Below are positions 14,838 to 22,329 of a stretch of 64,000 nucleotides of DNA, one piece after another. The stretch is taken from positions 37,934-101,933 of the forward strand of contig JBBTWP010000003.1 in NCBI GenBank assembly GCA_038062675.1, in the 5' to 3' direction. Made by a program: the position numbers and the translations under genes. The notes under the pieces were generated by a model. That model was not told where the DNA came from. It saw only the letters and a list, made by a program, of their open reading frames with translations, and did not search any database. Every line of letters begins with the position of its first letter. Position 1 is the first letter of the stretch. This DNA comes from Patescibacteria group bacterium. Its GTDB lineage: Bacteria; Patescibacteriota; Minisyncoccia; Phycocordibacterales; UBA1550.

Positions 14838-15710
14838 TCATTTGTGCTCCCCACGCACCGTTTCCCCATCACTCTTAAAAATGAGTGTCCCTTGTTCGGC
14901 AGTGCTCCGCGCAGAAATCTTCAATTCTTCCAAAAGCGCAGTCACTTCTTTGTGTGGGTGCCCATACTTGTTGTCTTTGCCTGCGGAAATGATTGCGTAC
15001 TCTGGATTTACTGCCGAAAGGAATTCACACGAGCTCGATGTGCGCGAGCCGTGGTGCCCCAATTTCAAAACATCAGTTTTAAGTAGACCACCCTCCCTTC
15101 CCACCAGATACTTTTCGATAGCGATGGGCGAATCCCCCGTAAACAAAAAAGAGGTGTTGCCATACGAGAGTCGCGCAACAATTGAACCCATATTGGTTTC
15201 CCACCCTGCAGTACTTTGGGCAGGGAACAAAATTTCAAGCACCACACCCTCGTCGAGAATAATGCGTTCGCCAGTGCGTGCCAAAATCCGCTTCGCATGT
15301 TCGCGCTCGATGGCATTCTCAAACGCAGCATATGCTCCCGTATCCGATGTGTTCTCGGTCGTCACCACACCATCCACACTCAGACGGTCGAGCACTGACG
15401 GCAACCCACCAACATGATCTTGGTCAGGGTGCGTCGCCAGCACGAGATCAAGCGAACGATCAAAAAACGGCATGACACGCCCAAGCGGTCGCAAGATCGC
15501 CCCACTCGACACACCACCATCAATCAGCATTTGATTCCCGTTCGGCGCTTCTATATAAATAGCATCTCCCTGCCCCACACCCAGAAACGCCACCGTCAGC
15601 ACACCATGCCGATCCGCGCGCATCGTCGCAGTCCAAATAAAAATATTGAGTACCAACAAAATGCCGAGCACTGTCCACGATGCATAATGTTTTGAAATTG
15701 TGCGATTCAT
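14838..15710 (-). CDS. Membrane-anchored metallo-beta-lactamase fold protein, ComEC C-terminal-domain-like
   Basis: 'LATHPDQDHVGG' (HxHxDH-type) and 'LKLGHHGSRTSSS' are typical of the ComEC/Rec2 MBL domain. N-terminal TM helix. Start chosen at the 'MNRTIS' ATG to avoid overlap with the divergent gene. Confidence 0.6.
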   Translation of the reverse strand: MNRTISKHYASWTVLGILLVLNIFIWTATMRADRHGVLTVAFLGVGQGDAIYIEAPNGNQMLIDGGVSSGAILRPLGRVMPFFDRSLDLVLATHPDQDHVGGLPSVLDRLSVDGVVTTENTSDTGAYAAFENAIEREHAKRILARTGERIILDEGVVLEILFPAQSTAGWETNMGSIVARLSYGNTSFLFTGDSPIAIEKYLVGREGGLLKTDVLKLGHHGSRTSSSCEFLSAVNPEYAIISAGKDNKYGHPHKEVTALLEELKISARSTAEQGTLIFKSDGETVRGEHK

Positions 15711-15759
15711 AAATCCACCATACTGAATTCTGCCAACATGATATGATGGGTATATTACC

Positions 15760-16353
15760 ATGATTCCCGACACATCCATCGAAACCATTATCGCCTTCGC
15801 AGGTTATGCAGGAATTTTCCTGCTCATGATCGCAAACGGGGCGGTGTCATTTCCATCAAGCCAAATCCTCTACATCATTGTCGGGTACTTCATTGCACAG
15901 GGTGACCTCGCGCTCGTCCCCGCAGCGCTCGCTGGTTCGGCAGGAAACGCCGTGGGTAATGTCATCCTCTATGAACTCGTTCGTGCACGTGGTCGCGCAT
16001 TCGTCGAGCGCATGAAACTTTTCCCCGCACGCGAACTCGCAAAAGTCGAAATCGCATTCAAGAAAAAAGGTGCGTGGTTTGTTTTCATCGGCAAGCTCCT
16101 CCCTGCTATCAAAGTGTTTGTCCCCATTCCCGCCGGACTCGGCAAAATGCACCGCGGATGTTTTGCGAGCATCATGTTTGTCGCATCATTTATTTGGTCG
16201 CTCGGCTTCATCTCCATCGGCTACTTCTTTGGCAAGTCATCTGACCTCTTTGGCAAATACGCCATCGTCCTCGTCATCGTCGCCGCACTTGTCCTCCTCT
16301 TTTTCTACCGCTACATCAACAGCGAAGAAATCGTCCGCGAGGTGGAGAAATAA
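15760..16353 (+). CDS. DedA / VTT-domain (SNARE-associated) membrane protein
   Basis: 197 aa with multiple TM helices and a DedA-like core 'FIGKLLPAIKVFVPIPAGLGKM'. Confidence 0.6.
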   Translation: MIPDTSIETIIAFAGYAGIFLLMIANGAVSFPSSQILYIIVGYFIAQGDLALVPAALAGSAGNAVGNVILYELVRARGRAFVERMKLFPARELAKVEIAFKKKGAWFVFIGKLLPAIKVFVPIPAGLGKMHRGCFASIMFVASFIWSLGFISIGYFFGKSSDLFGKYAIVLVIVAALVLLFFYRYINSEEIVREVEK

Positions 16354-16370: not shown

Positions 16371-18185
16371 CTAAACCTTCAAAACTGCATCCAAAAAATT
16401 TACAATCTTTGGGTATGCATCGAGGCGATTCTTTAATTTTTTCAACCCGTGCCCCTCGTCGGCATACACCAAAAGCTCTGATTTTTTTCCTGATTCAATA
16501 AGTTTTTTGTGCATCTGCTCCGCCTCAGAAAGTGGCACACGCGGATCATTTGCTCCGTGAACGATGAGGAGTGGCGCTTGAATGTCTTCAATAAAATTGA
16601 TGGGCGAGATTGATTGCAAAAATTCGCGGTCGGTCGCAAGTGAGCCGTATTCCGCCTCCCTATTCTCGCGCCGGTATGGCGATGTGTTTTCGAGGAATGA
16701 AACGAAATTTGAAATTCCCACAATATCAACACCCGCTGCCCACAACTCGGGACGAAACGTCAGCCCTGCGAGCACCATGTAGCCACCATAGCTAACGCCC
16801 AAAAGCGCAACCTTCTTCGCATCAAATCTCCCGTCTTGCTCCAAAAACTTGTGAAAATACTCAAGGTCTGTGACGGAGTCCATTCTTTTTTTTACATCAT
16901 CAAGCGCCATATAGGCCTTGCCGTACCCAGAACTCCCGCGTACGTTCGGCAAAACTACCGCATATCCATGATGCACAAAGTATTGAGCAAGAGCATTAAA
17001 CCTGGGGCGGGATTGATCAGTAGGACCACCATGAATGTCAACAATAACGGGAATTTTTTGCCCGCTCGATTGGACTTTTGGCGTATACACAAACACGGGA
17101 ACTTGCAACCCATCAAATGACGGATATTTCACGAGCTCGGGCTCCACAAAAACTTCCTCAGGAACGCGACGCGGACTATGAGTAATTTGCCAATATTTAT
17201 TTTCCTCCTTGGACCACACCCACACGTCGCCATTTTTTGCTCCACTTGCTAAAGAAAAGGCAATGTGGCTCCCATCAGACGACCATGTTGCTCCACTTAT
17301 CATCCCTTTAGGAAAGTTTTGCTTGCTGACCGGTTGCAAATTTTTTGTTTCATAAACCGTAAGCGTGTTGTATCCATCTTTATTGACCATCACCATCAGA
17401 TGTTCCCCATCTCTGGTTATACTAATGCCATCAATGTCATGCTCCGGCACCAGCACATACAAACTCTTTTTGGTGGCAAGATCAAAAAAAGATACTCCAC
17501 AAAAATCCCGACCTCTATTTTGCACAAAAAAGAAACCACGCTCATCAGGAAGCCACCTTGGTGGCCCAATGATACCTTTTTCGTCTTCAGGAGTGAGGAG
17601 CTCAGCAACACCACTTGCAACATCCACAAGGTGCAAATCATTTCTTCCTGCTCCATAATTTTTCGTCACCACCAACTTACTCCCCGTCGGTGAAAAACTA
17701 TAACTCCAACACGAGCCACCCTCACCATAGACCATCCGAGACACCCCCGTTTCAACATCCATTATGTACACATCGACATCTTTCCCGTTCCGAACATTAG
17801 AGTGGTAAGTAATAAATTTTCCATCACGGGACCAGCCACCAAAATTATGAAATGCTGTTGGCTCACTGGTGAGCATGCGCACCGACTTCGAGGCAACATC
17901 AAGTAGAAAAAGTTGCACATTTTCGTTTCCTCCTTTTGCCATACCGAACACAATTTCGTTGTTAATTGGGGAAAATGAAACAGACGAAACAGAATCCTCA
18001 TATGCAGTTAGCTGCTCGGGCTCACCTCCGGTACGAGGCACGACATAAAGCTGGAACACTCCCGTCACGTTGCTCAAAAACGCCACCGTGTTTCCATCAG
18101 GACTGAACGACGGAGCTACCGCAGACTTGATATCCAAAAAATCTTCAATAGTATATTGTGGTTGCATAAATGGTATTTTAATCAA
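16371..18185 (-). CDS. S9 family peptidase (prolyl oligopeptidase / acylaminoacyl-peptidase type): N-terminal beta-propeller plus alpha/beta hydrolase
   Basis: Nucleophile elbow 'GVSYGGYM' (GxSxGG), downstream 'HGANDPRVP' and 'DEGHG' (Asp and His of the triad). PD40-like propeller repeats in the N-terminal half. Confidence 0.75.
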   Translation of the reverse strand: MIKIPFMQPQYTIEDFLDIKSAVAPSFSPDGNTVAFLSNVTGVFQLYVVPRTGGEPEQLTAYEDSVSSVSFSPINNEIVFGMAKGGNENVQLFLLDVASKSVRMLTSEPTAFHNFGGWSRDGKFITYHSNVRNGKDVDVYIMDVETGVSRMVYGEGGSCWSYSFSPTGSKLVVTKNYGAGRNDLHLVDVASGVAELLTPEDEKGIIGPPRWLPDERGFFFVQNRGRDFCGVSFFDLATKKSLYVLVPEHDIDGISITRDGEHLMVMVNKDGYNTLTVYETKNLQPVSKQNFPKGMISGATWSSDGSHIAFSLASGAKNGDVWVWSKEENKYWQITHSPRRVPEEVFVEPELVKYPSFDGLQVPVFVYTPKVQSSGQKIPVIVDIHGGPTDQSRPRFNALAQYFVHHGYAVVLPNVRGSSGYGKAYMALDDVKKRMDSVTDLEYFHKFLEQDGRFDAKKVALLGVSYGGYMVLAGLTFRPELWAAGVDIVGISNFVSFLENTSPYRRENREAEYGSLATDREFLQSISPINFIEDIQAPLLIVHGANDPRVPLSEAEQMHKKLIESGKKSELLVYADEGHGLKKLKNRLDAYPKIVNFLDAVLKV

Positions 18186-18233: not shown

Positions 18234-18263
18234 ATAAAAAATCCCCGCAAAATTCACGGGGAT
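18234..18263 (-). terminator. Rho-independent terminator closing the small-peptide cassette
   Basis: Minus-strand 'atccccg tgaatttt gcggggat' followed by 'tttttat'. Confidence 0.6.
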
Positions 18264-18286
18264 CTTGATCGCATAGTTAGTGTCTA

Positions 18287-18376
18287 CTAACCGTCGCAAT
18301 CACCATCACACCAACTACCGCCAGGACCGCAATCACCACCGCAGCTTTCGGCATACATCTTGTGTGTCGTTTCCAT
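18287..18376 (-). CDS. Small Cys/Gly/Asp-rich peptide 1 (29 aa) 'METTHKMYAESCGGDCGPGGSWCDGDCDG'
   Basis: Hand-translated; too short for the ORF track. SD 'AAGGAG' sits 7 nt upstream of the ATG, with the conserved 39-bp leader repeat immediately upstream. Confidence 0.45.
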   Translation of the reverse strand: METTHKMYAESCGGDCGPGGSWCDGDCDG

Positions 18377-18410
18377 AAAGAAACTCCTTCAGCAAGAAAC
18401 AAAACAAAAC

Positions 18411-18449
18411 AAAACATTAGCGTTATCGAGACCCTCTCGAAGTTGGGCC
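18411..18449. repeat. 39-bp conserved leader element, copy A
   Basis: 'aaaacattagcgttatcgagaccctctcgaagttgggcc' is an exact direct repeat of 18570..18608. It contains the internal hairpin 'cgagaccctctcg'. Confidence 0.85.
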
Positions 18450-18487
18450 GCTAGTGTCAGTAATATTTTTCATCGTCACGGAAGGGG

Positions 18488-18553
18488 TTAAGGGGTATCA
18501 CAACCGCCCTCACACCCATTCACGGGGCATTCACCCTCTGGATGATTACTCAT
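18488..18553 (-). CDS. Small Cys-rich peptide 2 (21 aa) 'MSNHPEGECPVNGCEGGCDTP'
   Basis: Hand-translated. SD 'GGAGG' 6 nt upstream of the ATG; preceded by the second copy of the 39-bp leader repeat. Confidence 0.45.
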   Translation of the reverse strand: MSNHPEGECPVNGCEGGCDTP

Positions 18554-18569
18554 ATCACACCTCCACAAG

Positions 18570-18608
18570 AAACATTAGCGTTATCGAGACCCTCTCGAAG
18601 TTGGGCCA
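18570..18608. repeat. 39-bp conserved leader element, copy B
   Basis: Same sequence as copy A. Each copy sits just 5' (on the minus strand) of a Cys-rich micro-ORF. Confidence 0.85.
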
Positions 18609-18646
18609 CTCATGCTTTCAAATAAAGTACCGCCACACGACTTTGA

Positions 18647-18706
18647 CTAAGGGATGCACCCATCGTCAACTTCGTTTCCACCCTCACAACCACCATCATC
18701 AGTCAT
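18647..18706 (-). CDS. Small Cys-containing peptide 3 (19 aa) 'MTDDGGCEGGNEVDDGCIP'
   Basis: Hand-translated. 'AGAGG' 5 nt upstream of the ATG. Confidence 0.35.
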   Translation of the reverse strand: MTDDGGCEGGNEVDDGCIP

Positions 18707-18734
18707 ATCAACCTCTGCTCGTGATTAACATTGA

Positions 18735-18869
18735 TTAAAACAAATCGCCATCAAATGCTGGCGCGTGCTCAAACTCGTCAAATGACGGTCCTGCACCTTG
18801 GTTACGCATCCCTGCTCGATCAATCTCGACCGGGGAACTCGTAGACCAAGGAAGTTCTGGCGTCTTCAT
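18735..18869 (-). CDS. Small ORF 4 (44 aa, no Cys) 'MKTPELPWSTSSPVEIDRAGMRNQGAGPSFDEFEHAPAFDGDLF'
   Basis: Hand-translated. SD 'GAGGAG' 8 nt upstream. First gene of the same-strand cassette. Confidence 0.35.
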   Translation of the reverse strand: MKTPELPWSTSSPVEIDRAGMRNQGAGPSFDEFEHAPAFDGDLF

Positions 18870-19139
18870 GGCAAAGAACTCCTCTCGTTGAACGAATGCC
18901 TGTAGTTATTGGGCCGATCCCAGAACCAACATTCGTTATTACCTATGCTCATCTTACAAACTACAAAAGTGTTGTCAAAGACTAACAACATGCACGCCAA
19001 ATTCCGCCATGGGTGTCAAAAATTGTCACGACAGGTTGTAAAATAATGCCCATATTTAAAGGTTTATGACTAAAATTAACGACCTGTTGTTGGCAGTTGA
19101 CAACAGTCTCTGTTCCTGTATTCTGTGCAGTAAGGCTAT

Positions 19140-19937
19140 TTGTTAAAAGCTGACAACATGGATATCAACAAAGTATTACAAAATTTTGAATTCTCCGACA
19201 AGGAAATTGCCGTGTATCTTGGCCTGCTTGAGCTCGAAACAGGAACCGCGACACAGATTGCCGACCAGTCACAAATAAACAGAAGCACGGTATATGTCAT
19301 CATTGAAGCACTTCAAAAGAGGGGACTTATTAGCATCAACAAAGAAGAAGCGAGTATCACAAAATACGTCGCATCTCCCCCTGAGCGTCTCTTGCAACTT
19401 GCCGAAGAGGAAACGAAGCGATATCAGACCCTAGTCGGGCAAATTCATTCAGTTCTTCCTGAACTCAAATCTCGCTATCGGGGAAACAAACCTCGACCCA
19501 AAGTAAGACTTTACGAAGGGAAAGAGGGACTAATAAGTGCGTACGAAGACACTCTAACATCAAGTGAGCCAATACGTGCCTACGCATCAATTGAAAACAT
19601 GCACAAAGCTCTCCCTGGATATTTCCCAGATTACTACAAACGACGTGCTGAAAAAGGGATCGCTATACGTTCCGTTCATCCCGACACTGAAGAAGCTCGT
19701 AAAAGAACAATTCACAACTCGGAAGAGCGTCGCGACTCGGCGCTTGTCCCACCAAGCGAGTATAGCTTCTCTCCTGAGATAAATATTTACGATAACAAAA
19801 TTGTCTTTATGTCACTCATCGAAAAATTTTCACTCATCATAGAAAGCAAAGAACTTGCAGATGCACTTAAAAAAGTATTCGAACTTTCGTGGAAGGAGGC
19901 GGTACGACTTGATAATCTCTCAAAAAAGAAAAAATGA
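19140..19937 (+). CDS. TrmB-family transcriptional regulator
   Basis: N-terminal winged HTH 'FSDKEIAVYLGLLELETGTATQIADQSQINRSTVYVIIEALQKRGLI' plus a TrmB-like C-terminal domain. Start is uncertain: TTG at 19140 or ATG at 19158. Confidence 0.6.
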   Translation: MLKADNMDINKVLQNFEFSDKEIAVYLGLLELETGTATQIADQSQINRSTVYVIIEALQKRGLISINKEEASITKYVASPPERLLQLAEEETKRYQTLVGQIHSVLPELKSRYRGNKPRPKVRLYEGKEGLISAYEDTLTSSEPIRAYASIENMHKALPGYFPDYYKRRAEKGIAIRSVHPDTEEARKRTIHNSEERRDSALVPPSEYSFSPEINIYDNKIVFMSLIEKFSLIIESKELADALKKVFELSWKEAVRLDNLSKKKK

Positions 19938-20779
19938 ACACTCCAACACCCATCATAAAAATTGATGCGCTCTCATCCAAATACCCCGATATTCGCATGT
20001 ATATTAAGGACGAGAGTGTAAACCCTTACGGAACAATTAAGGACCGTCGCAATGCACACATCGCAAAAGAGGCTCTTCGCCTTGGTGTCGACAAACTAGC
20101 AATGATCACTTCTGGGAACAACGGGTATAGTCTTTCAAGGCTTGCGAGTGAAACCAATATCAAAGTCACTTGCATTGTAGACAAGACGGTTAGCGAAGAT
20201 GTTCACAAGAAACTTTCTGAGGTTGCATATCAAGTGATTAAAATAAATCTTCAAGATAAAATTTTGCGTACTGAAGAAATTATTTCCTTTGCGCGCGATC
20301 GCGACGATGAGGTCATTTGGGATGTCACCAATGGGTATGAAGAATCGTACGGCATTGTGGTAAACGAAATTCTTGCGCAACTACCACATGTTGATTACAT
20401 TGTAGTCCCCTTGGGGAGCGGTGGGATCTTTGTGGGCATTGCAGAGCAACTTTCCAAATCTAATCACATTGCAAAAGTAATCGGCGTTGGACCCAAAGCA
20501 AACTATCGGAGCTTTGCTGATAAACTTTCGACACCATGGTCCCCATACACGAAAGCAATCGAAGGGTATGAGAAGCGCGGGCACACTGTTATTCGCCTAT
20601 CCGAATCAGAAATACAAAAAACTTATTTACATTGTCGCAACATCTGCAACTGCGAACCTTCGGCGTCGATTGTTTTTGCAGCACTTGAACATTTTAATTT
20701 CAAAAAAGAAGATACGGTTGTTTTTATAAACTCCGGCAATTCTGAGGCGACAAATTTTTTACATCGATCAATTTCCTAA
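19934..20779 (+). CDS. PLP-dependent fold-type II enzyme (threonine synthase / cysteine synthase superfamily)
   Basis: 'KDESVNPYGTIKDRRNAHI' matches the PALP lysine motif (K-x-E-x-x-N-P-x-G-S/T-x-K-D-R). Glycine-rich 'VVPLGSGG'. Start overlaps the TrmB stop (ATGA). Confidence 0.6.
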   Translation: MNTPTPIIKIDALSSKYPDIRMYIKDESVNPYGTIKDRRNAHIAKEALRLGVDKLAMITSGNNGYSLSRLASETNIKVTCIVDKTVSEDVHKKLSEVAYQVIKINLQDKILRTEEIISFARDRDDEVIWDVTNGYEESYGIVVNEILAQLPHVDYIVVPLGSGGIFVGIAEQLSKSNHIAKVIGVGPKANYRSFADKLSTPWSPYTKAIEGYEKRGHTVIRLSESEIQKTYLHCRNICNCEPSASIVFAALEHFNFKKEDTVVFINSGNSEATNFLHRSIS

Positions 20780-22329
20780 AACTCGTGCTCAGATATTTTT
20801 TTGTTTGGTGAAGTTGTGGTGCGGGGGAAATTTTTTACGACGATGTAGCCGAGGGCGACGTATGACAAAATGAGGAGTGTGAGCGGAAATGTTTTCAAGT
20901 GAAGTGAGCCGTACGGAACTTTTGCAAAAAGTTCGACGATGGAAATAATGTACGCAAGAATGATGTAAGAAATGTATCCGAGCATCGCACCCAAGAGCGG
21001 CACCCATGCGAAGCACGCAACAAGAAGTGCAGCGAGCATCGCAAGTGGGACAGCGGGTAAGACAATGAGGTTGGTGATGAGCCCAACCACCGACGCACTG
21101 CCCATGTGGTAGAGAAGAAGTGGCAGTACAAAAATTTGTGTGGCGACAGTGGCAAGAAAAATCTCGCGCATCATGCTTGGTGTCCGTGAGCGTGAAACAC
21201 CAAAAAAATATTTCTCGAGAATAGGGACCAACACAACAAGCGCGAGTGTAGCCACAAACGAGAGTTGAAATGAAACATCATGAAAAAGAATCATGGGGTT
21301 GTGAAGCACCATGAGTGTACCTGCGAGGACGAGTACACGAAGCGCACTACTCTCGCGACCAAGTGCGCGCGCAATGATGACGACGAGCACCATGATGGTC
21401 GCGCGCACCACCGTGGCCCCACCACCGACAAGCATAGCAAACATCACAATGCCGAACGCGCTCATCACAAGGCGAAGCGTAAACGAAAGCGACCCAGCGA
21501 CGCGCGCGAGCGCGCTCGCAACAATGGCGATGTTGTATCCCGAAAGCACGACAATGTGCACCACTCCCGTTTCACGAAATTTCTGTAACAGCTCTTCGCC
21601 GAGTGATTGTTTGGCACCAAGCAAGACTCCGCCCGCAAGCGACGCCTCAGGCTCGGGAATGACGCGGTTAATATTCTTGAGTAGCACATCTTTCAATGCA
21701 AACAATTTCTCATACACCATGTTTCCTTTATGTTGTGAAGCAACCTCAACTACTGGATAGAGCATCTGATAGAAGATATCGTCGCGTGCAAGATATGAAC
21801 GATAGTCGAACATGCGCGTCTCGGTTTCGCTTGTGAAATTTTTTGGCACCAACATCTTGCCCTGCACGCGCACAACATCACCATACTGAAGTCGCGGGTA
21901 CTCTGCCGTACGCACGAGCACGCGCACACGCTCGTCAAGGACATGGATCGACGGTTGTCCAATAGAACTGACCGATACAACTTCAAAGACAACGTTCGTG
22001 TAGGCGTCGCGAGCATCCACTTCGCGCACTACCAATCCCTCGAGCGTCACGGATTTTCCCACCAGCGAATCCAACACGTGCATGTTTCTCAACAGGCGCT
22101 CGTTGTTAAACTCCTGCCGAAAAACTCCGAGAGCACACGATATCAAGATGCATGAAACAAAGAAACGCTTTCGCGCCTCTCGACCAACGCCGTGCATCAC
22201 CAACAACATGCACGCAAGAAGAAGCAAGAAAAAAATGAACGCCGACCCAAAACGAAAGAGTGACTCGAGAGCCACCCCAACAACGAAACTTATTGTGAAA
22301 CCGTAAAAATAATTGTTCCCCATACTCAC
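20776..22329 (-). CDS. comEC: ComEC/Rec2-family DNA internalization channel protein (transmembrane competence domain, no MBL domain)
   Basis: 517 aa polytopic membrane protein with an N-terminal OB-fold-like region 'YGDVVRVQGKMLVPKNFTSETETRMFDYRSYLARDDIFYQM' characteristic of ComEC (DUF4131 plus competence domain). Confidence 0.65.
   Translation of the reverse strand: MSMGNNYFYGFTISFVVGVALESLFRFGSAFIFFLLLLACMLLVMHGVGREARKRFFVSCILISCALGVFRQEFNNERLLRNMHVLDSLVGKSVTLEGLVVREVDARDAYTNVVFEVVSVSSIGQPSIHVLDERVRVLVRTAEYPRLQYGDVVRVQGKMLVPKNFTSETETRMFDYRSYLARDDIFYQMLYPVVEVASQHKGNMVYEKLFALKDVLLKNINRVIPEPEASLAGGVLLGAKQSLGEELLQKFRETGVVHIVVLSGYNIAIVASALARVAGSLSFTLRLVMSAFGIVMFAMLVGGGATVVRATIMVLVVIIARALGRESSALRVLVLAGTLMVLHNPMILFHDVSFQLSFVATLALVVLVPILEKYFFGVSRSRTPSMMREIFLATVATQIFVLPLLLYHMGSASVVGLITNLIVLPAVPLAMLAALLVACFAWVPLLGAMLGYISYIILAYIISIVELFAKVPYGSLHLKTFPLTLLILSYVALGYIVVKNFPRTTTSPNKKISEHEF

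Follow-up and report, generated by a model that had tools for sequence, protein, structure and literature searches.

Small cysteine-rich or precursor-like peptides are encoded in several well-described kinds of bacterial operon, among them the precursor arrays of ribosomally synthesized and post-translationally modified peptides (RiPPs) and bacteriocins, metallothionein genes divergent from their repressors, leader peptides followed by terminators, and pheromone genes paired with regulators. Here we describe a locus that is akin to these in kind and whose peptide family is new. It lies in a 64-kb stretch of DNA from a Patescibacteria group bacterium, derived from Hainich groundwater assemblies (the whole stretch is referred to as the window), and consists of four tandem micro-open reading frames (micro-ORFs), ORF4, pep1, pep2 and pep3, each preceded by a Shine–Dalgarno sequence (SD), together with a terminator-like hairpin and a repeat, all read on the minus strand at 18234–18869. 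Comparison with homologous loci (numbered L003 and so on) shows a conserved, previously unannotated micro-peptide family, and at least two of the four genes, pep3 and ORF4, to belong to conserved families. As judged by these sequence comparisons, the peptide genes and the oligopeptidase gene downstream of them are a new conserved peptide–protease module in Patescibacteria; in the window, the array of peptide genes has undergone local expansion and is degenerate in part. Patescibacteria (the candidate phyla radiation, CPR) have tiny genomes, and their regulation and small-molecule biology are nearly uncharted. Genes of fewer than 30 codons escape standard annotation, and this family, which is under strong purifying selection and travels with a regulator and an oligopeptidase, appears in public data under wrong annotations, either antisense ORFs or a read-through fusion.

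The locus resembles RiPP and bacteriocin precursor arrays in its tandem, very short genes, degenerate paralogues, strong SDs and terminator ahead of an enzyme gene, in the adjoining S9 or M16 oligopeptidase and, at some loci, in nearby ABC exporters, methyltransferases and histidine kinases. Enzymes of both peptidase families are known as leader peptidases in RiPP pathways, S9 prolyl oligopeptidases in those of class III lanthipeptides and M16 enzymes in the PQQ and subtilosin clusters. Unlike in RiPP arrays, none of the loci examined has a class-defining modifying enzyme, and the peptides are strongly acidic, leaderless in many members and devoid of homology to Pfam or NCBIfam precursors. In the cyanobacterial smtB–smtA metallothionein locus, as here, a small Cys peptide gene and a repressor-type gene are divergent, and the promoter region between them contains palindromes. 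However, the regulator here is TrmB-like and not of the ArsR/SmtB type, the conserved downstream peptidase has no counterpart there, and the peptides have just four Cys in CX3C spacing instead of the CxC or CxxC clusters of metallothioneins, with which they share no sequence homology. Seven peptides scanned against Pfam and NCBIfam at E values up to 10 matched no family, SmtA/BmtA-type metallothioneins included.

The leader and arrest peptides trpL, hisL, TnaC and ermCL share with the locus the order of short SD-preceded ORF, terminator and gene, as well as conservation near the stop codon; the occurrence of one ORF upstream of non-homologous but functionally similar genes is a further likeness. 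The differences are that no antiterminator was found in the three loci folded, that stand-alone and arrayed copies exist and that an N-terminal motif is conserved. The streptococcal Rgg/SHP and ComR/ComS pheromone loci likewise pair a regulator with a divergent short peptide gene, have a conserved and presumably active peptide C-terminus and have their targets downstream; by contrast, the regulator here is TrmB-like, not Rgg/RRNPP, and the peptides are acidic and Cys-rich, not hydrophobic.

A conserved family of cysteine-rich micro-peptides

Members of the pep3 family were recovered in three ways: by position upstream of S9 peptidase orthologues, by profile searches and with a degenerate DNA pattern. 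Upstream of three of the four closest relatives of the window's S9 enzyme (61–67% identity), the same strand carries SD-preceded micro-ORFs that share this C-terminal sequence; MSTKHALWSSSGAGPDDGCDGDCGAGGSPCDGDC in L007 and MSVKNMPWSSNESGVIPQYCGGDGCDGACGPGGADGSCDGDCDG in L008 are examples. Altogether at least 27 distinct members of 22–46 aa exist, the number tabulated. The C-terminal module reads C-x-G-x-C-G-P-G-G-x(2 or 4)-C-D-G-D-C-(D/N)-G-stop, with the four Cys as two CX3C pairs. The C, G, C, GG and CDGDC residues of this module do not vary in any of the 27 members, an invariance partly imposed by the DNA search pattern and free of that constraint in the hidden Markov model matches. The 57-nt DNA pattern, which covers the class with a 2-residue spacer, was run on 185,579 species genomes and found 8 loci, 7 in Patescibacteria metagenome-assembled genomes and 1 in an uncultured bacterium; for the same class, viral contigs gave 0 matches. 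The family occurs almost only in Patescibacteria. A profile search of the PDB found no relative, and a search of the literature on the motif, and on RiPPs or small Cys-rich proteins of Patescibacteria/CPR, yielded no relevant report.

Most of the conservation falls within the final 17–19 codons up to the stop. Over 14 core codons in six loci, non-synonymous divergence (pN) is 0–0.06 versus a synonymous divergence (pS) of 0.43–1.29; the pep3 core is under purifying selection, with non-synonymous change near zero and synonymous sites saturated. Disruption of the frames in homologous loci had been set beforehand as an outcome that would refute the genes; the pep3 and ORF4 frames are in fact conserved there, and the proposed Ka/Ks-type and cysteine checks gave the low pN and the invariant Cys described above.

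These data also bear on the strand. The plus strand could instead be coding, through a 94-aa ORF at 18454–18738 that overlaps pep1 and pep2, or the region could be a non-coding RNA, the minus-strand micro-ORFs being chance occurrences; a gene caller did place a 136-aa antisense ORF over the peptide genes of L008. This is very improbable, because variation in the minus frames falls at third codon positions with invariant amino acids in six loci, the family always stops after CDGDC(D/N)G, and the SDs and terminators sit on the minus strand. Neither do the antisense ORFs have a Pfam hit on record, and Rfam yielded nothing relevant for the region at E values up to 1 and only three distant tRNAs for the whole window at the gathering score. 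The window's 94-aa ORF is an antisense artefact of the same kind as the 136-aa ORF of L008.

The coordinates of the window's features are collected in Table 1. The SDs read from the sequence are GAGGAG for ORF4 (9 nt to the ATG), AGAGG for pep1 (5 nt), GGAGG for pep2 (6 nt) and AAGGAG for pep3 (7 nt). There are 57 SD-preceded ATG ORFs of 15–60 aa on the two strands of the window, and only pep1 and pep3 combine at least two Cys with at least 40% Gly/Asp/Glu, pep2 narrowly missing at 38%; this composition screen places the ORF set beyond chance. The original prediction, made from the letters of the window, had described four tandem SD-preceded minus-strand micro-ORFs closed by a rho-independent terminator and had taken them for genuine duplicated peptide genes. 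All translations and SDs agree with our reading, a hairpin with a T run is present at a slightly shifted position, and the frames of pep3 and ORF4 are kept in the loci of other species. The pep1 DNA resembles the CDGDC-coding segment of pep3 at 84%, and the pep2 DNA resembles the Cys-module segment at 79%; with 2 and 3 Cys retained against four in the canonical module, both look like degenerate local paralogues of that module.

Table 1. Positions of the micro-ORF array, its signals and its neighbours in the window
Feature	Coordinates	Strand	Description
S9C-like (acylaminoacyl-peptidase-like) oligopeptidase	16371..18167	-	598 aa; no obvious N-terminal signal peptide by inspection
Intrinsic-terminator-like hairpin and T run	18238..18266	-	between pep3 and the peptidase gene
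pep3	18287..18376	-	29 aa, METTHKMYAESCGGDCGPGGSWCDGDCDG; canonical member of the conserved peptide family
Repeat copy 2	18412..18452	-	41 nt, upstream of pep3
pep2	18488..18553	-	21 aa, MSNHPEGECPVNGCEGGCDTP; 3 Cys; apparent degenerate paralogue; CEGGCD resembles CDGDCD
Repeat copy 1	18570..18610	-	41 nt, upstream of pep2
Strain-variant positions	18541, 18568, 18569, 18716		variants in L003 and L005
pep1	18647..18706	-	19 aa, MTDDGGCEGGNEVDDGCIP; 2 Cys; apparent degenerate paralogue
ORF4	18735..18869	-	44 aa, Cys-free; N-terminal motif ELPWSTSSP; first gene of the operon
Promoter-like site of the micro-ORF operon	18951..18978	-	TTGACA-16-TAAGAT; scores 10/12
Palindrome TGTTGTCAAAGACTAACAACA	18970..18990		overlaps -35 box of the peptide promoter; putative operator of the TrmB-like regulator
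Second palindrome TGTTGTTGGCAGTTGACAACA	19085..19105		overlaps promoter-like site of the TrmB-like gene; conserved in L008 and L019
TrmB-like winged-helix regulator	19158..19937	+	259 aa; divergent from the peptide operon; matches only the Pfam TrmB helix-turn-helix domain
Fold-type II pyridoxal-phosphate (PLP) enzyme (PALP)	19934..20779	+	overlaps the stop codon of the TrmB-like gene; weakly SbnA- or CysK-like

The first gene, ORF4, carries a second conserved element. Its motif, E-x-P-W-(S/Y)-(S/T)-x-x-P, is common to small ORFs in L015, L019 and L009, where by eye the relatives read LELPWYTNHP, PEHPWSSCNP and EYPWYTNYP, respectively. The codon for the Ser after the Trp is TCT in the window and AGT in L019. 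These comparisons show ORF4 to belong to a related PW(S/Y)(S/T) small-protein family. By position ORF4 is the counterpart of a fused 44-aa peptide, L008a: the motif, as [PL]W[SY][ST], is joined to the Cys module in one ORF in 8/27 members, and the two lie on separate adjacent ORFs in the window, L015 and L019. ORF4 is annotated as a gene on 8 contigs, and a word-based search of 5.8 billion proteins returned only itself. Where the split form occurs, annotation can go astray: in L015 (187–438), the 83-aa protein P0129 is an artefact in which translation was continued past a TAG stop, so that an ORF4-like ORF of 49 aa appears joined to a Cys peptide of 23 aa whose gene is preceded by an SD of its own.

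This two-part architecture is what would be expected if the genes encoded RiPP precursors, with a PWSS-type leader and a Cys-rich core, the maturase being encoded elsewhere or unrecognised, the oligopeptidase serving as leader peptidase and the ABC transporters as exporters. Multi-copy arrays with degenerate paralogues, strain-level variation concentrated in the cassette (below), and neighbouring S9 and M16 peptidases, whose relatives include leader peptidases, together with methyltransferases, ABC exporters, histidine kinases and a CAAX protease, all speak for it. We nevertheless consider it unlikely, if the least unlikely of the alternatives. Pfam annotation of the window and of 15 loci (about 4–8 kb each) contains no radical-SAM, YcaO, Lan, ATP-grasp or other class-defining maturase, and in at least five members (L015b, L017a, L019b, L022 and P0139) only 4–8 residues precede the first Cys, so that no leader is left for enzyme recognition.

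What the module itself might do is suggested by its tail. Excalibur domains and thrombospondin type-3 repeats contain a calcium-loop motif bracketed by cysteines, and the motif in our peptides is also bracketed by cysteines. PMC3123361 describes Dx[DN]xDG as a calcium-binding loop motif of EF-hand, Excalibur and other proteins; the peptide tail, CDGDCDG in 17/27 members and CDGDCNG in 7/27, holds DxDxDG and DxDxNG, respectively, a match to the motif given there as a linear motif only. Unlike in those proteins, the motif is at the extreme C-terminus of a 22–46-aa peptide with no flanking fold and no predicted structure. The module of four Cys and DxDx(D/N)G plausibly binds metal.

Linkage to oligopeptidases

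The gene next downstream of pep3 encodes an oligopeptidase. The original prediction placed an S9 gene at 16371–18185 and assigned it to the prolyl-oligopeptidase family; the gene is there, but its start is most likely at 18167, as called in L003, and the assignment does not hold. The S9 catalytic domain PF00326 is found at an E value of 9.9e-43, the POP-type propeller PF02897 at just 1e-08 (versus 8.7e-77 in a true S9A enzyme, that of L017), and the closest solved relatives are aminoacyl/acylaminoacyl peptidases, PDB 5l8s (E 6e-58) and 1ve6. We thus rejected a prolyl-specific reading in favour of an S9C-like one. The earlier step from terminal Pro residues to a prolyl peptidase falls for the same reason, the window enzyme being closest to acylaminoacyl peptidases; the canonical members, moreover, end in DG or NG, and at other loci the peptidase is an M16 enzyme.

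An S9C-like gene is next downstream of the peptides in the window, L007, L008, L009, L011/L012, L019 and L025. Other peptidases take this place elsewhere, an S9A prolyl oligopeptidase in L017 and M16 enzymes in L013, L016 and L022. The downstream gene is not a peptidase in L018 and L020 (methyltransferase) or L023 (ABC exporter), and L026 has nothing co-directional. Counting only loci found through the peptide itself, a peptidase is next downstream in 7/11. The two links pointed out earlier for the window, with the S9 gene downstream and with the divergent TrmB/PLP operon, both recur in other loci. The block of PALP, TrmB-like, peptide and S9 genes lies between HIT and RecJ genes in L009 and between the halves of ComEC in the window; as the flanking backbone genes differ, the block behaves as a module that moves as a unit.

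The window's ComEC is apparently split into two separate minus-strand genes about 5 kb apart, at 14838–15788 and 20776–22329. The parts are the metallo-beta-lactamase part (316 aa) and the DUF4131 plus Competence part (517 aa), respectively, and a block of PALP, TrmB-like, peptide, S9 and DedA genes lies between them. Several further gene types occur near the peptide genes, given here as raw counts: sensor histidine kinases within a few genes in L014, L016 (7TM type), L017 and L020; and ABC transporters in 4 loci, as full exporters in L019 and L023 and as the ATPase component only in L007 and L017. GNAT acetyltransferases are found in L020 and L022, and a CAAX/Rce1-like protease in L021.

A short ORF standing immediately 5′ of another gene on the same strand, with a terminator between them, could be a cis-regulatory leader or arrest peptide. 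The micro-ORFs would then sense a charged tRNA or an exit-tunnel ligand and set the expression of the downstream peptidase, their translation controlling termination or exposure of the SD; Patescibacteria probably rely on imported peptides for their amino acids. The layout of ORF, terminator and gene expected of an attenuator is present in the window, L007, L011, L013, L018 and L022, and in several other loci a hairpin followed by a T run is visible at the equivalent place after the peptide gene. The sharing of an upstream ORF by three non-homologous peptidase types is a pattern typical of cis-regulators, and the conservation of the last 17–19 codons is arrest-peptide-like. In L011 (890–950) and L018, furthermore, the SD-like sequence that serves the downstream gene is embedded in the terminator's 3′ arm, and the ATG of that gene lies 4 nt past the T run, so the hairpin could both terminate transcription and mask the translation start of the S9 or methyltransferase gene.

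We nonetheless judge a leader or arrest function unlikely, and no more probable than the RiPP alternative. With a stalled-ribosome footprint placed on the last Cys codon, the terminator stays the minimum-energy structure in the window, L007 and L008a, and the constrained folds of these three loci contain no antiterminator, leaving the classical attenuation model unsupported there. Upstream array copies have terminators of their own and are not next to a peptidase: L008a is followed by its own terminator and then by another peptide gene. The L026 copy has no co-directional gene to regulate, the N-terminal PWSS motif is conserved in both split and fused forms, and in 3 loci (L018, L020 and L023) the downstream gene is the methyltransferase or ABC exporter.

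The terminators between array copies, the stand-alone L026 copy and the methyltransferase and ABC genes downstream suggest that the peptide acts as a product and not merely as a leader. Because attenuation is weakened and RiPP maturation lacks a maturase, we favour a reading in which the peptide is translated as a product in its own right under a TrmB-controlled promoter, possibly binds metal and is matured or turned over by a co-transcribed oligopeptidase; we hold this at about even odds. Several points weigh against it. The S9 family has many homologues across Parcubacteria, and L010, which carries a close S9 orthologue (60% identity), has no such peptide upstream, so the peptidase gene may have a housekeeping role and be tied to the peptides by nothing more than a common transcript. 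In the window, the stretch from the terminator to the S9 gene contains promoter-like sites, and the peptidase therefore need not be co-transcribed with the peptides. AlphaFold2, run on one member with a 16-sequence alignment, gave a pLDDT of 52 and no secondary structure; no PDB, Pfam or NCBIfam relative was found either, and metal binding is a prediction from motifs. Finally, no counterpart of pep1 or pep2 was found outside this species, and these two may be decaying copies.

The divergent regulator and a proposed mechanism

A TrmB-like gene lies divergently upstream of the peptides in the window, L008, L016 and L019, and L009 and L019 likewise have the PALP gene that follows it in the window. 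The promoter-like site of the micro-ORF operon is kept in position and sequence in L008, L015 and L019. The palindrome TGTTG-N11-CAACA has 4 matches in the window versus 0.76 expected, and it recurs in the TrmB–peptide intergenic region of L008, L015, L016 and L019; with the window, five loci combine a divergent TrmB-like regulator with these palindromes. From these positions we infer that the TrmB-like regulator binds the palindromes.

Under the product reading that we favour, the TrmB-like protein would repress both divergent promoters through the TGTTG-N11-CAACA palindromes. Once derepressed, the peptide genes would be highly expressed, and partial read-through of the terminator would yield less of the peptidase. 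Oligopeptidases of this kind are known to take only short peptides, and the enzyme here, apparently cytoplasmic by inspection, would mature or degrade the peptide. The freed Cys4/Asp-rich C-terminal module could bind a metal ion through its four thiolates and the carboxylate loop DxDx(D/N)G and serve as a buffer, chelator or signal; in some lineages, nearby ABC transporters may export it.

A bolder proposal is that the regulator, micro-peptide or peptides and oligopeptidase constitute a previously unknown Patescibacteria peptide circuit for signalling or metal scavenging, or else a new RiPP class. In the first version, the peptidase would make or quench the active C-terminal module in cell–cell or host–symbiont signalling or in metal scavenging, and the C-terminal domain of the TrmB-like protein or the nearby 7TM histidine kinases would sense it; in the second, the PWSS recognition element could be supplied in trans by a separate ORF. 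We regard this proposal as speculative and slightly less probable than either the RiPP or the leader alternative in its plain form. Should the peptide prove to bind metal, to act as a signal or to represent a processed peptide of a new kind, the system would be among the first lineage-specific peptide systems defined in this radiation.

A local repeat, strain variation and degenerate copies

The array also contains a repeat, which had been noted as an identical 39-bp element before two of the peptide genes. The element stands in that place, yet it is 41 nt long, with 40/41 identity between the copies and an exact 38-nt core; the window has 2 copies versus 0.00 expected from shuffles. Reading it as a shared regulatory or leader unit finds no support. 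In a metagenome collection, the 22-nt core of the repeat occurs only on one other contig, of the same organism and with just the same two copies, and the repeat is absent from all homologous loci of other species examined; the suggested search for further copies thus found none beyond this species' locus. As to a conserved RNA fold, the stem-loop scores no better than shuffles (z -0.45 to -1.5), and Rfam holds no match. We accordingly rejected a dispersed element, there being two copies only at a single locus of one species; a structured RNA is not supported, the fold being no better than shuffles. A reading as integron cassettes was dropped, as no integrase is among the annotated flanking genes.

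The repeat coincides with variation between strains. Many short assemblies break at it. L003 differs from the window by 3 single-nucleotide polymorphisms (SNPs) in 19.7 kb, all within or beside pep2: one changes pep2 by P5T, at the position of the first Cys in a by-eye alignment to pep3, and the other two flank repeat copy 1 and extend the identity between the repeat copies. In L005, an SNP changes the pep1 SD from AGAGG to GGAGG, and repeat copy 1 is joined directly to the sequence that follows copy 2, the pep3 leader, which reflects loss of the pep2 cassette or else a jump made by the assembler. From its sequence, the repeat looks like a local duplication or gene-conversion tract in an unstable array, not a conserved regulatory unit. 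It would be a by-product of tandem duplication, kept identical by gene conversion, and would mediate the gain and loss of cassettes between strains; it may also act as an internal promoter or an RNA processing site.

The peptide genes could also be real but mere neighbours of the peptidase, with pep1, pep2 and perhaps ORF4 functionless decaying duplicates and the cassette a by-product of local duplication. That pep1 and pep2 lack homologues outside the species and have lost 1–2 of the four Cys, that the pep2 cassette is apparently missing in L005 and that the word-based protein search matched ORF4 to nothing else would fit. So would a possible terminator relic: right after the pep2 stop, at 18478–18487 on the minus strand, AACCCCTTCC matches the 5′ arm of the post-peptide terminators of L007 and L008 (AAACCCCTTCCTTG...), here without a 3′ arm, and may be what is left of an ancestral pep2 terminator. 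However, every strain variant retains the SDs and open frames, and one SNP even improves the pep1 SD. Other species, too, have degenerate second copies beside canonical ones (L008b, L009a and, in L017, the second micro-ORF), ORF4 keeps its N-terminal motif across species, and the adjacency of peptide and peptidase recurs with three peptidase types. On balance, this reading seems improbable, more so than any of the functional alternatives above.

Two further occurrences, one of a family member and one of a similar stretch of sequence, lie outside this arrangement. In L026 (6001–6117), the canonical member MDYPNSYVDEPLAMFAGGDGCDGNCGTGGSACDGDCDG stands alone, with no co-directional gene downstream, on a contig of 57–64% GC with genes for a TraG/T4SS coupling protein, a resolvase and restriction-modification enzymes nearby. 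Identical copies of this peptide are present on 9 contigs. This context suggests horizontal transfer on a mobile element, whose carrier, given the GC content, is possibly outside Patescibacteria. The other, the 461-aa protein P0126, has no Pfam domain; read from its sequence, it has a hydrophobic N-terminal segment and a C-terminal hydrophobic anchor, and it contains six repeats with NCGPGGNTWQCDT, close to the CGPGGSWCD stretch of the peptides. These repeats raise the possibility that, in extracellular proteins, the CGPGG-x-W-x-CD stretch forms a loop closed by a disulfide.

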